DNA of 53,293 nucleotides, taken from Planctomycetota bacterium. GTDB taxonomy: Bacteria > Planctomycetota > Planctomycetia > Pirellulales > PLA5. The translations under genes were made by a program, and so were the position numbers. The stretch covers positions 1 through 53,293 of the forward strand of contig JAJDEG010000122.1 of assembly GCA_029259895.1 (NCBI GenBank), read 5' to 3'. Below are positions 1 through 13,987 of this stretch, piece by piece (within the stretch, counting starts at the first letter, position 1; every line of letters begins with the position of its first letter). The notes under the pieces are model-generated. The model worked only from the letters and a program-made list of their open reading frames with translations. It searched no databases and was not told the origin of the DNA.

Positions 1-77
1 TCACGATCAGCTCGACCAGCCGATCCACATCGATCCGCCCGCTGCGAACGTCGTCCCTGATTTGCTCAACGTCCATG
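1..77 (-). CDS. 5' end of an unidentified gene running off the left edge (partial)
   Basis: Minus-strand ATG at 77-75 reads MDVEQIRDDVRSGRIDVDRLVELIV with no stop before position 1. Only 25 codons are visible. It is divergent from the methylase fragment, and the RBS is weak. Confidence 0.3.
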
Positions 78-195
78 CCCCAATTACATAACCAGTTCGG
101 CCAAATCACGCAGCGCCAGCTTCAGAGAATGGACAGCTACGTTTCATTGTTTCACGAGTAAGTATCTTGCATTTGCTTTTGTATCACCGAATATC

Positions 196-1356
196 GTGTT
201 TGCAGCACCTCATATCGTCATCGGCATGGATAAGTATAGTCACTTCGGAATACTGCAAGGTTTCTCGCATGAGACTTGGGTCAGATTCAAGACTTCTTAT
301 CTTTCCAGCTCACTAAGATATACGCCGAGCGACTGCTTCGAAACCTTCCCGTTTCCCGAATGTTCGGTAAGGCTTGACGTAGTGTCACGACACTACTACG
401 AGTCCCGTGCCATGTATATGTTGGCGAACAGTACAGGATTGACAGACACCTACAATCGCTTTCACGACCCCGGCGAAACTTCCGCCGACATTCAGAAGCT
501 CCGTGATCTGCATGTCGAGATGGATCAAGCGGTTGCCGCCGCCTACGGCTGGACCGATCTCGACCTCGGGCACGGCTTCCACGAAACCAAGCAAGGCGTC
601 CGTCTCACCATCAGCGAACCCGCCCGCCGCGAAGTCCTCCAGCGCCTGCTCAAGCTCAACCACGAACGCTACGCCGAGGAAGTCAAGCAAGGCCTGCACA
701 ACAAGAAGCGGAAGGGGACGAAGAGCAAGGGACGAGGGCGGAAGACCAAGGCGGCTCGCGGCAGTCCCACGCTGTTCGGTGATGAAAACGAAGAGCCGGA
801 CGCCGCCGACGCAGCGACCGAAGGCGACGCCGAAGACACGCCCACGGCCAACCGGCAACGCAGCGTGTCGAGCCGCTCGACGGAGGAATCGAGCCGCCCA
901 ACGCCCATCGAGGAAATCGCCTCCGACGAAATCATGGCCGCCTTCCGCCAAGCCGCCCGCGGCCGCGGATCGCTGGAGCGCGACGAGTTGCTCAAGGAAG
1001 CGTCGCTCATTCTCGGCTTCCAACGACTCGGACCCAAGATCGAAGAGGCATTGCGCGGCCACCTCCGCGCCGCCATCCGCCGCGGCATCATCGAAGCCGA
1101 CGGTGCCAACCTGGTCCGCGCAGCAACCACGTCAATGGCCGACTACGACCTCGAAGCCCTCCGCGAATCGTTCCGCTCGGTCATGCGCAAAGGCGCGAAC
1201 TACCAGCGCGAAGAAGTCATCCACGACCTAGCCCGCTACCTAGGCTTCGCCCGAGTCACCGACACCAGCCGCGACGCGATCAAGTCCGCCATCAACAGCG
1301 CCATCCGCCAAGGCATCCTCGGCTACGAAGGCAGCGAGATCTGGCGGGAAGAGTAA
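196..1356 (+). CDS. drmMI: 3' fragment of an MmeI/PglX/DrmMI-type N6-adenine DNA methyltransferase (post-catalytic/target-recognition region plus two tandem C-terminal helical repeats); no catalytic domain in the window
   Basis: The block KYSHFGILQGFSHETWVRF...LRYTPSDCFETFPFPE resembles the region following the catalytic domain in MmeI/PglX-type enzymes. The frame is open back to 61 and closed by TGA at 58-60. No FxGxG or NPPY-type motif is present. The C-terminus carries two similar ~55-aa units (LLKEASLILGFQRLGPKIEEALRGHLRAAIRRGIIE and VIHDLARYLGFARVTDTSRDAIKSAINSAIRQGILG). It sits at the head of the DISARM-like operon. Confidence 0.6.
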   Translation: MFAAPHIVIGMDKYSHFGILQGFSHETWVRFKTSYLSSSLRYTPSDCFETFPFPECSVRLDVVSRHYYESRAMYMLANSTGLTDTYNRFHDPGETSADIQKLRDLHVEMDQAVAAAYGWTDLDLGHGFHETKQGVRLTISEPARREVLQRLLKLNHERYAEEVKQGLHNKKRKGTKSKGRGRKTKAARGSPTLFGDENEEPDAADAATEGDAEDTPTANRQRSVSSRSTEESSRPTPIEEIASDEIMAAFRQAARGRGSLERDELLKEASLILGFQRLGPKIEEALRGHLRAAIRRGIIEADGANLVRAATTSMADYDLEALRESFRSVMRKGANYQREEVIHDLARYLGFARVTDTSRDAIKSAINSAIRQGILGYEGSEIWREE

Positions 1357-1388
1357 CTGAACCAACGACTTATCATGTGGGCTGATAC

Positions 1389-12400: not shown

Positions 12401-12481
12401 AGCCTGGACCAGACGCGCGAAGTAAGTGCCCAACTATCGGATCCGGTCGCCGCCTGTCTCGTCGAGGTGCGGCGCATTTGA
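9407..12481 (+). CDS. drmD: DISARM DrmD-like SNF2-family helicase
   Basis: Motifs [16 protein letters not shown] (motif I), [11 protein letters not shown] (DEAH) and helicase-C [21 protein letters not shown]. The protein is 1024 aa. Confidence 0.85.
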   Translation: [1024 protein letters not shown]

Positions 12482-12502
12482 TTTTTTTGGCGAGGTGAGC
12501 CA

Positions 12503-13987
12503 ATGAGCATTTTGAAGCGTCTCATCGCATATCTTTTCCGACGCAATACGCGAGGCATTCCGGCTCGCAAGGGCAAAACACGACCGGCGCCGTTGCCGCC
12601 GCTTGGCCCGGCCGCGTCAAATCCCGCCGCCCCCAACGTGTCCCCGGTGGAATTCCCGGATCTGCCCGAATTCTTTGTCGAGACGCCTCAAATTGTCCCG
12701 GAAGATTCGGACGTTCACGTCGGCGACATTCCTCGGTCGCCCCCGCGACCCCCATCGACCGCCGTTGTCGTCGGCCTTGACTTTGGCACGCACTCCACCA
12801 AGTTGCTACTGCGAAAACGAAACTCGGAAACGGCTCAACTTATGCGGATCGACAAATCGCATCCCGCCTACCCGCCGTTCGCCGCTCCATCGCTAGTGAA
12901 AGTGCATGAAAAGCACGTGTACTTTGGCTCGCGATCGCTTGATATACCGGGCGGAACGCTCTTTCGTTCCTTGAAAGTCCGCCTGCTTGCAGCTCCATCT
13001 CCGAATTGCGATGACGAGGAGAATGCCCTCGGGCTAACACCAGACCTAATGGTCGCGTGGTTTCTGTCGTGGTGCATGGACCGGATCCGAAGAACTGTCG
13101 AAAAATACATTACGCAAGATGTCTCGAGACTCTTCATAAACGTCGCGGCACCGATGGATCATTTCGAAAATGAACAATTGAAGACGCGCTACCTGAAGAT
13201 CGTGCATGCCGCATGGCAATCGGTATTTGGCGAGGCACGGTTTCCAATGCGCCAATCAACGCACGTGGATGAAGCGACGCATCGATTTGCGTCGTGGTTG
13301 GCCGCGGATGTGCCCAGTCGAGAAACCCGCCTGTTCGAAGTGCTCCCGGAGTCCGTCGCGCCGATCGTGTCGCTGTCGCGAGACCCGCAGATGGACCCGG
13401 GCATGTACATGATCGTCGATATGGGTGCGGGAACGACCGAGCTTTCGGTGAACCACGTCGGTGAAGTGGGCGCCGATCAGCGGGTCTTGTGTTACGACGA
13501 TAATTCAACGCAATTTGGCGGTGACGACTTTGATTCGGCGGAGCAATACACTGACGGGGCGGCGAATTTGTCGCGGCGAATCGACAAACTCGTCGCGCAA
13601 TTCATGGGCACGTTTCGACCCACATGGTGTCGGGCTTATCAAAAAGATGGACGCAACCCAGCAGCACGCGAACGATGGCGTCATTTTCGAGTTCTTTTAA
13701 CTGGCGGCGGCGCGCGAAGGCCGGAAATCGAACGTGCGATCCGGTCGACCCTACCGCACCCGCCCTGGCCGGTGGGCGAGGAGCAATACGATGTCTCATG
13801 GCACGAGCCAACTGGAATTGTGTTGGACATGAATGAGAGCGCGCAGAAAATCCACTTGCTAGCAGTAGCCCACGGTCTTTCGGTCCCTCGGCAACAATGG
13901 CCCATTTTCTTCCTTCCCAGCGAGATCGATACCCAACAAGCTCCCCAAGTCGTCGAGCAACCTCAAGGCCACTGGTATGTTGGATGA
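12503..13987 (+). CDS. actin/Hsp70-fold (ASKHA superfamily) ATPase with a Pro-rich N-terminal extension
   Basis: Phosphate-1 motif VVVGLDFGTHSTKLLL, phosphate-2 motif YMIVDMGAGTTELSV and adenosine motif RVLLTGGGARRPEI. A GAGG RBS lies about 9 nt upstream of the ATG. It starts 21 nt after the drmD stop on the same strand. Confidence 0.75.
   Translation: MSILKRLIAYLFRRNTRGIPARKGKTRPAPLPPLGPAASNPAAPNVSPVEFPDLPEFFVETPQIVPEDSDVHVGDIPRSPPRPPSTAVVVGLDFGTHSTKLLLRKRNSETAQLMRIDKSHPAYPPFAAPSLVKVHEKHVYFGSRSLDIPGGTLFRSLKVRLLAAPSPNCDDEENALGLTPDLMVAWFLSWCMDRIRRTVEKYITQDVSRLFINVAAPMDHFENEQLKTRYLKIVHAAWQSVFGEARFPMRQSTHVDEATHRFASWLAADVPSRETRLFEVLPESVAPIVSLSRDPQMDPGMYMIVDMGAGTTELSVNHVGEVGADQRVLCYDDNSTQFGGDDFDSAEQYTDGAANLSRRIDKLVAQFMGTFRPTWCRAYQKDGRNPAARERWRHFRVLLTGGGARRPEIERAIRSTLPHPPWPVGEEQYDVSWHEPTGIVLDMNESAQKIHLLAVAHGLSVPRQQWPIFFLPSEIDTQQAPQVVEQPQGHWYVG

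Follow-up and report, generated by a model that had tools for sequence, protein, structure and literature searches.

Does a row of seven closely spaced genes that includes most of a class 1 DISARM operon encode one enlarged defence system, or does it bring together several systems of separate origin? The question is raised by contig JAJDEG010000122.1 of a Planctomycetota bacterium (assembly GCA_029259895.1), which was analysed over its full 53,293 nucleotides (nt). This stretch, the entire contig, is called the window below. Its left part holds, in order, a fragment of the methyltransferase gene drmMI, a gene for an OLD-family nuclease, drmA, drmB, drmC, a gene for a SNF2 ATPase and a gene for an Hsp70-like ATPase of the ASKHA (actin/Hsp70) fold. 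The seven co-directional open reading frames (ORFs) on the plus strand, and the spacing described for them in an initial annotation of the locus, were reproduced exactly by the ORF list and a script: successive ORFs are first 32 nt and 2 nt apart, then overlap by 4 nt (ATGA), and are then separated by 3 nt, 73 nt and 21 nt. That annotation had interpreted the genes as an expanded or composite DISARM. Our results indicate that the region is probably a mosaic of separable modules and not a single seven-component system. The modules can be told apart with good confidence as a class 1 DISARM disrupted by an insertion sequence (IS), an OLD nuclease gene embedded in it, and an autonomous pair made of the SNF2 and Hsp70-like genes.

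The SNF2 ATPase downstream of drmC

The gene at 9407..12481 (plus strand) contains the SNF2 motifs reported initially, including VDEAHHARN, and its best PADLOC model is PDLC02623, named DrmD (476 bits). The initial annotation took it for the DrmD of the system, an identification that did not hold. The protein scored 364 bits on NCBIfam DISARM_DrmD (NF038317), for which the cut-off is 610, with an alignment extending to residue 1007, and in related loci the canonical drmD was found upstream of drmMI. SNF2 proteins that, like this one, are encoded next to an ASKHA gene scored 341-366 bits on the same model versus 1315 bits for the canonical DrmD of a related locus (L104), which reached 1385 bits on PADLOC PDLC02621. 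Both kinds of gene are present in one locus of Cupriavidus sp. YAF13, where the ASKHA-linked SNF2 matches PDLC02623 end to end (2067 bits) and the canonical drmD does not. Because of this end-to-end match, the PADLOC label on the window protein denotes the ASKHA-linked clade, of which PDLC02623 is a model. By the same scores, the window SNF2 is to be placed in a separate RapA-like clade and not with canonical DrmD. None of its homologs is named DrmD at NCBI; they are called 'DEAD/DEAH box helicase' or 'SNF2-related'.

The AlphaFold2 (AF2) model of the protein (predicted local distance difference test score, pLDDT, 78.8) matched Escherichia coli RapA over its full length with an E-value of 1.5e-36, while other SNF2 proteins were matched only at about 1e-13. 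Similarity to the RapA fold is thus strong; the protein is not a RapA equivalog, since it scored 217 bits on NCBIfam PRK04914 (cut-off 576). The model agrees with the published description of DrmD, ArmA and BrxHII as RapA-like, and RapA-like SNF2 proteins are subunits of DISARM, BREX and ARMADA. The 375 C-terminal amino acids (aa) had no PDB profile match and gave only a sub-threshold SHOCT-like motif with Pfam; no nuclease or other effector domain was found there in the Pfam and PDB profile searches.

The Hsp70-like partner

The gene that starts 21 nt further on (12503..13987, plus strand) had been described as encoding an actin/Hsp70-fold ATPase, and both its conserved motifs and its AlphaFold model bore this out. 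Searches of Pfam, NCBIfam and PADLOC gave no useful match, so that none of the three collections has a model for it. The protein consists of a short helix (residues 2-13), a disordered proline-rich tether (14-85) and a nucleotide-binding domain (about 86-470). The motifs GLDFGTHSTK (phosphate 1), PES/PET, DMGAGTTE (phosphate 2) and GGG (adenosine) do not vary among 36 homologs, and the hydrophobic and basic pattern of residues 2-13 is conserved in about two thirds of those aligned. In the AF2 model (pLDDT 82.8; predicted template modelling score 0.79) the fold is two-lobed and actin-like, and the top Foldseek matches were the nucleotide-binding domains of DnaK, Hsp110 and BiP (E about 1e-13, probability 1.0), which together with the motifs makes the protein a member of the ASKHA superfamily. 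Searches of the PDB with sequence alone were marginal, with an E-value of 0.2 for the single sequence (phmmer) and 0.004 for a profile match to actin or MreB. The protein is not an Hsp70 chaperone proper of the DnaK/HscA kind: it stops about 25 residues past the nucleotide-binding domain in the model, has no substrate-binding domain and does not match Pfam HSP70. About 130 homologs were found, all unnamed and almost none with a Pfam domain. An exhaustive profile search among 1.84 billion representatives collected 259 clusters at E<=1e-30 and 1564 at E<=1e-10.

A subset of the family is 700-850 aa long and carries an N-terminal extension of 300-400 aa in place of the helix and tether (P0036, P0042, P0053, P0083, P0111, P0116 and the product of L015 9005-11257); Pfam flags a coiled coil in the extension of P0083, P0111 and P0116. 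A distant ASKHA partner from a Victivallales metagenome-assembled genome (MAG; L254 6422-8188) matches PADLOC PDC-M61B at E 6e-10, and the window protein matches it at E 4e-4. The PDC-M61 system may contain a related Hsp70-fold component. A weak hairpin (CGTCG..CGGCG) with a T-run lies at 12460-12488, over the SNF2 stop codon and just 5' of the ASKHA start. A promoter and terminator scan of positions 1-16000 returned fewer sites than shuffled sequence and is uninformative on operon structure. Since terminator-like sites are rarer here than in shuffled sequence, the hairpin is probably a chance occurrence.

Distribution of the SNF2-ASKHA pair

The association of the two genes was followed from both sides. 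Starting from the ASKHA protein, a SNF2 gene whose product is 45-64% identical was found directly upstream in all 15 true relatives of the genome collection, with no DrmA, DrmB, DrmC, DrmMI or OLD gene within up to 10 kb of any of them. This was also the case in four long contigs and 17 metagenome loci. In the reverse look-up from SNF2 homologs, an ASKHA gene lay directly downstream in all three cases with DNA, and in a fourth, without DNA, a 421-aa gene with no Pfam domain follows the SNF2 gene after 4 nt; the gaps between SNF2 and the next gene in these four contigs are 4-20 nt. Taken together, SNF2 homologs 42-72% identical to that of the window were found directly upstream of an ASKHA gene in 39 loci, the two genes often overlapping or closely spaced. 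A scan with a SNF2 alignment extended the association to distant SNF2 proteins (27-36% identical): an ASKHA-family gene adjoins 30 of 80 such loci, downstream in 28 and upstream in two, in Proteobacteria, Acidobacteriota, Cyanobacteria, Bacteroidota and others. A Shinella isolate has the same arrangement. The order of a PDLC02623-type SNF2 followed by an ASKHA gene, found with a 21-nt gap in the window, is thus shared by 39 close and 31 distant loci.

Pairwise identities among the SNF2 proteins rise and fall with those among their ASKHA partners (r 0.91, Spearman 0.78, Mantel 0/5000), and no third gene is conserved beside the pair across loci. Most of the roughly 70 pair loci, which are spread over many phyla, are without DISARM, none of its genes lying closer than 7-10 kb. 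Genes and elements seen near the pair include type IIG restriction-modification (RM) genes, DruE, BrxA/BrxB, PD-T4-6, mad6, integrases, IS66 and ISL3 elements, and WYL proteins. The pair is present in the cultured isolates Cupriavidus sp. YAF13, Devosia rhodophyticola G2-5, Shinella sp. PSBB067 and Spirulina subsalsa FACHB-351. It was not found in the phage collection, and the plasmid collection contained a single match, on a 4.6-Mb Shinella replicon. In one 601-kb metagenome contig (L161 1-11245), genes ahead of the pair on the same strand encode an MmeI/Eco57I-type methyltransferase, a second Hsp70-like protein (751 aa) to which TPRs are fused, a UvrD-like helicase and a protein of 199 aa. 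The whole could be an ARMADA/DISARM-like array of larger size, with two different Hsp70-fold proteins.

In a few loci the pair is in contact with DISARM. It follows drmD-drmMI directly in L252. In L163, where drmD-drmMI is divergent, an IS66 element lies between drmD-drmMI and the pair, and in L311 the pair is followed by PDC-S68 and then drmD-drmMI. The locus of Cupriavidus sp. YAF13 (L273) is the most complete: drmD (2442-5579), drmMI (5576-9886), SNF2 (9893-13033), ASKHA (13030-14655) and drmA (14652-18647), followed by drmB and drmC. The ASKHA protein of this strain has no PADLOC model, and hhalign placed it with the family at 97.8% probability over 364 columns. 'DISARM plus SNF2-ASKHA' is therefore a recurrent, non-obligate arrangement. 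The notion of a composite DISARM put forward initially stood to the extent that such composites recur elsewhere; it failed for the lineage of the window itself, as set out in the next section.

The phylum-wide conservation of the pair, its location near mobile elements and in defence islands, and its repeated embedding in DISARM suggest a candidate defence or DISARM-accessory module. On balance, we favour regarding SNF2-ASKHA as an autonomous, co-inherited two-gene cassette of this kind.

The DISARM core and its relatives

Class 1 DISARM (Ofir et al. 2018) has the order drmD-drmMI-drmA-drmB-drmC. The class 1 core claimed for the window was confirmed, with DrmA, DrmB and DrmC each above the curated NCBIfam cut-off and the C-terminus of DrmMI ahead of them. 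The drmA gene (3065..6697, plus strand) encodes a YprA-family DExH helicase that scored 1410.6 bits on NCBIfam DISARM_DrmAS (NF038325; cut-off 950) and 1089 bits on PADLOC DrmA, and the motifs FFPTGGGKTEAY, IIQDELHLISGPLG and QATSRVGR were all located in it. The product of drmB (6694..8538, plus strand), a DUF1998/MZB zinc-binding partner of DrmA, scored 670 bits on DrmB_fam (NF038324; cut-off 240), matched Pfam MZB and contains RPSQILTTFGVGSLVDL and CHACSFLPETSCERGNKYLDR. That of drmC (8542..9333, plus strand), a single-HKD nuclease of the PLD family, scored 204 bits on DISARM_DrmC_I (NF038319; cut-off 133), matched Pfam PLDc_2 and has the motif HVKCAVAD. Profile searches over 3065..12481 thus assigned DrmA, DrmB and DrmC as predicted and left the SNF2 below the curated DrmD cut-off.

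A DrmA scan, with one genome per species, provided 80 related DISARM loci whose DrmA is 51-88% identical to that of the window. When the window proteins were mapped on these loci, the gene order was drmD-drmMI-[slot]-drmA-drmB-drmC, the bracket standing for a variable interval. The protein encoded by the drmD upstream of drmMI resembles the window SNF2 only in patches, at 26-41% identity. Neither an ASKHA gene nor a SNF2 gene like that of the window is present in any of the 80 loci, and a hidden Markov model (HMM) of the ASKHA family matched none of them; of the 53 with drmC, 35 extend at least 3 kb beyond it. The expectation that the OLD and ASKHA genes would be conserved together with the DISARM core was not borne out for either gene in these relatives.

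Where, then, are the drmD and the rest of drmMI of this operon? The open frame at 61..1356 (plus strand) has its first start codon at 196, and the PADLOC DrmMI match to it (E 2.7e-68) covers only profile positions 1139-1340 of 1347. The drmMI 3' fragment proper (141..1356, plus strand) encodes the last approximately 200 conserved aa of a type IIG-like adenine methyltransferase and a C-terminal extension of about 190 aa. Similarity to the drmMI of relatives sets in abruptly at nt ~142, and full-length DrmMI of L104 aligns to positions 154-777 only. The 140 nt to the left are identical (140/140) to positions 1901-2040 of L249, a contig of a Phycisphaerales MAG. There they belong to an element of 1.68 kb that is bounded by perfect terminal inverted repeats of 16 nt and contains a 513-aa ORF that matches Pfam DDE_Tnp_IS66 at E 2.4e-17. 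Positions 1..140 (minus strand) are accordingly the right end of an IS66-family element, comprising a terminal inverted repeat at about 126-140 and the first 25 transposase codons, with the start ATG at 76..74 on the minus strand and the reading frame running off the contig. Because the IS66 element end gives way to drmMI similarity at this point, the fragment is an IS-cut gene: drmMI was interrupted at nt 140/141 by an IS66-family insertion, only its 3' 1.2 kb are in the window, and an intact N6-adenine methyltransferase gene is absent. The methylase gene had rightly been called a fragment, but what truncates it is the insertion and not the edge of the window, the left contig end falling inside the IS66 repeat.

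Searches with DrmMI and DrmD of a related locus found neither the 5'/catalytic part of drmMI nor a canonical drmD elsewhere in the 53-kb window. By analogy with the relatives, we infer that a canonical drmD would lie beyond the IS, outside the window. After the conserved DrmMI end, at about 850-1353, the fragment encodes two tandem repeats of about 75 aa (containing LGFQRLGPKIEEALRGHLRAAIRRGIIE and LGFARVTDTSRDAIKSAINSAIRQGILG), which match the C-termini of PADLOC PDC-S37 and of the NCBIfam anti-phage ProA; the C-terminal extension is common to some relatives only (L105, L101, L083).

DrmAB senses incoming unmethylated DNA. In the class 1 DISARM of Serratia, loss of the methylases is not autoimmune and protection rests mainly on DrmA and DrmB (10.1101/2021.12.28.474362), so that intact drmABC genes beside a broken drmMI are not paradoxical. 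Since class 1 DISARM tolerates methylase loss without autoimmunity, DrmABC may still be active here.

The OLD gene and the drmMI-drmA slot

The gene between the methylase fragment and drmA (1389..3062, plus strand) had been recognised as an OLD-type ATPase/Toprim gene, and profile matches and motifs agreed. It matches Pfam AAA_15/AAA_21 and, in PADLOC, Old, GajA and AriA at E 1e-20 to 1e-22. The best PDB match was the class 1 OLD protein of Thermus scotoductus (6p74, E 1.2e-9) over residues 245-384, reaching the Toprim glutamate motif. Both an N-terminal ABC-type ATPase and a C-terminal Toprim domain are present: Walker A GPNDVGKS (G31..K37), Walker B IIFDEPE (D273/E274) and H-loop H307 are invariant in 29 homologs, and the Toprim residues E370 (VVEGITE), D432-G-D434 and E461 show little or no variation. 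Homologs go by the name 'ATP-dependent nuclease/OLD family', some with Pfam PF20469 (OLD-like TOPRIM). They stand alone among ordinary genes, beside type I RM genes or, in a larger island, about 19 kb from DISARM. Class 2 OLD proteins are partnered with UvrD, and the related nucleases of Gabija, PARIS and Septu with GajB, AriB and PtuB, respectively. An identity as Gabija, PARIS or Septu was rejected, no GajB, AriB or PtuB partner being present here or near homologs. No obligate partner is evident either, the homologs in L245-L248 having unrelated neighbours.

The interval that the gene occupies is hypervariable among the relatives. Measured in 52 loci, it was between 15 nt and 9.3 kb long, and in 34 of them it was longer than 1 kb. 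Among the proteins encoded in it are a NERD+UvrD/GajB-like helicase (10 loci), a SIR2-like protein (8 loci), the reverse transcriptase UG13a (RT_UG13a), LmuB, HEC-05/PDC-M55C, HEC-06/Orf5 and PDC-S39. An OLD-family HMM run over the 80 loci matched only L139, about 4 kb after drmC, and gave a weak partial match in the slot of L154. Such embedding of defence genes in DISARM was described by Payne et al. (10.1101/2024.01.29.577857) and was also seen for ShdA (PMC10270631). As the slot is hypervariable and holds other defence genes in relatives, we interpret the OLD gene as a further embedded and probably self-sufficient defence gene. It would most likely work alone as an ATP-driven DNA nickase or nuclease, and it could be co-transcribed with DISARM. 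Two families recur in the slots of L084-L156: the helicase has about 700 aa and is found mostly in cyanobacteria, and the SIR2/pAgo-associated-like protein has about 620 aa and is found in planctomycete loci. Because they recur, these families look more like lineage-specific accessories of DISARM than like random cargo.

Other features of the window

Downstream of the pair, the window contains ordinary planctomycete-type genes, among which no further defence genes were seen. They include two very large Ser/Thr kinase genes (15820-19509 and 28642-33147), of which one also encodes a C-terminal FGE-sulfatase-like domain and the other TPRs, a gene for a 2226-aa FG-GAP repeat protein (21965-28645) and an extracytoplasmic function sigma factor gene (33506-34210). 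The only tRNA gene, tRNA-Gln (TTG), is at 51753-51845 and overlaps the 3' part of a minus-strand ORF (51807..53147). The start of a group II intron (Rfam RF02003, domains D1-D4, 68 bits versus a gathering score of 49) occupies 53192-53293 and is cut by the contig end; with the IS66 element on the left, both contig ends therefore stop in mobile repeats. No synteny downstream of 13987 is shared with the DISARM loci or with the pair loci, so that a comparison with an 'empty site' is impossible.

Proposed role and alternative explanations

Whether the pair is an immune module is the point on which alternatives have to be weighed. We propose tentatively, and with slightly less than even confidence, that it may be a previously unrecognised, phylum-spanning two-gene immune module that acts alone or plugs into class 1 DISARM, and that current tools hide it by labelling the helicase 'DrmD' and ignoring its partner. 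The SNF2 motor might engage DNA, or RNA polymerase on foreign DNA, and the ASKHA partner might be an ATP-gated regulator or adaptor acting through its conserved N-terminal helix on the flexible tether of about 70 residues.

Several findings speak against parts of this account. The shared orientation and tight spacing fit co-transcription of all seven genes. The location of drmD to the left of the IS was inferred from relatives, the sequence there lying outside the contig. In Cupriavidus sp. YAF13, stop and start codons overlap throughout, so that translation of the pair is coupled to that of the DISARM genes on either side, as is also expected under true functional integration. The defence genes beside the pair were listed without a background rate. 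Neither protein of the pair has a recognisable effector domain (nuclease or toxin), and the full-length resemblance of the SNF2 to RapA is compatible with a role outside defence.

The alternative that survives best takes up the last two points. The pair could consist of a RapA-like factor for transcription or nucleoprotein remodelling and an Hsp70-like co-factor dedicated to it, brought close to DISARM by chance. The whole SNF2 model aligns with E. coli RapA far better than with other SNF2 proteins, no nuclease or toxin domain was found, and some pair loci lie among ordinary genes (L253, L164). However, the pair is patchy across phyla and belongs to a small family (the 259 clusters mentioned above), IS elements, integrases and defence genes are frequent beside it, it is repeatedly embedded in or attached to DISARM, and RapA-like SNF2 proteins are established subunits of DISARM, BREX and ARMADA. 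This explanation is unlikely.

A second alternative is functional replacement, in which the SNF2 of the pair substitutes, as a DISARM accessory, for a canonical drmD that this genome either lost in the IS event or never had. The distant relationship to DrmD, with the NCBIfam DrmD model aligning to residue 1007, would fit such a substitution, as would the location of the pair next to drmD-drmMI or inside DISARM in L252, L273, L311 and L163, the pair of L252 even taking the usual place of drmABC. In all four of these loci, however, a canonical drmD is present as well, so that the two SNF2 proteins co-exist and do not substitute for each other, and DISARM genes are missing from the 7-10 kb around most pair loci. 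We regard replacement as quite improbable.

The last alternative, one expanded class 1 DISARM operon with the SNF2 as DrmD and the OLD and ASKHA proteins as added subunits (a second nuclease and a sensor or scaffold), is very improbable: seven co-directional genes with gaps of at most 73 nt, the PADLOC label DrmD and the seven-gene drmD-drmMI-SNF2-ASKHA-drmA-drmB-drmC operon of Cupriavidus sp. YAF13 with its overlapping stop and start codons are in its favour, but the SNF2 is under the curated cut-off that canonical DrmD, upstream of drmMI in relatives, passes with 1315 bits, PDLC02623 recognises the ASKHA-linked SNF2 of Cupriavidus and not its canonical drmD, the pair is in 0/80 related loci and the OLD HMM matched only L139 and, weakly, L154, the OLD slot is hypervariable, and most of the approximately 70 pair loci are without DISARM.

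The reading of the region as separable modules has several consequences. An easy misannotation is corrected: what PADLOC labels 'DrmD' in this locus, and probably in many others, is a different SNF2 clade that has a partner of its own. The locus is a DISARM caught during IS disruption, and its drmMI-drmA junction is a further clear case of a cargo slot in which defence genes can be exchanged. A literature search for SNF2 or DrmD together with Hsp70, actin-like or ASKHA proteins in defence returned no description of the pair. Should the pair prove active, it would connect Swi2/Snf2 motors with the Hsp70/actin fold in the immunity of prokaryotes and could bear on the role of DrmD-like helicases in DISARM, BREX and ARMADA. 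If the proposal is true, an actin/Hsp70-fold ATPase that gates or targets a Swi2/Snf2 motor, with no obvious nuclease, would be a new mechanism of bacterial immunity.

Comparison with known systems

Like class 1 DISARM, the window has intact drmA, drmB and drmC in canonical order with the drmMI C-terminus ahead of them. It differs in that drmMI is truncated by IS66, no canonical drmD is in the window, an OLD gene fills the drmMI-drmA gap and a SNF2-ASKHA pair follows drmC. As in published cases of embedding, the OLD gene is flanked by core DISARM genes of the same orientation, and the slot that it fills is home to HEC-05, HEC-06, DRT, LmuB and PDC-S39-type genes in relatives; its own lineage, however, was seen embedded in none of the 80 related loci. 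The SNF2-ASKHA pair takes this slot in Cupriavidus sp. YAF13. With class 1 OLD (6p74), the protein shares the N-terminal ABC ATPase, the C-terminal Toprim with its Glu/DxD/Glu residues and the organisation as a single gene whose homologs have no dedicated helicase partner; sequence similarity is low, and its nuclease function is a predicted one.

The SNF2 of the pair has the SNF2 ATPase core and RapA-like full-length model of DrmD, ArmA, BrxHII and other RapA-like ATPases, and the DrmD HMM aligns through the C-terminal region of the window protein. Unlike DrmD, ArmA and BrxHII, it is defined by an adjacent Hsp70-like gene and not by an adjacent PglX/MmeI-like methyltransferase. Hsp70-like proteins are known in conflict systems, as CnuD of type III CoCoNuTs (PMC11090510) and as the Hsp70-only proteins of GTPase-centred systems (PMC7159879), and the ASKHA protein resembles both in being an Hsp70-type nucleotide-binding domain recruited to a predicted defence operon. 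It differs in having no substrate-binding domain, HEAT repeats or McrBC partner and in being coupled to a SNF2 helicase, and the ATPase motifs that are degenerate in CnuD are strictly conserved in its family.

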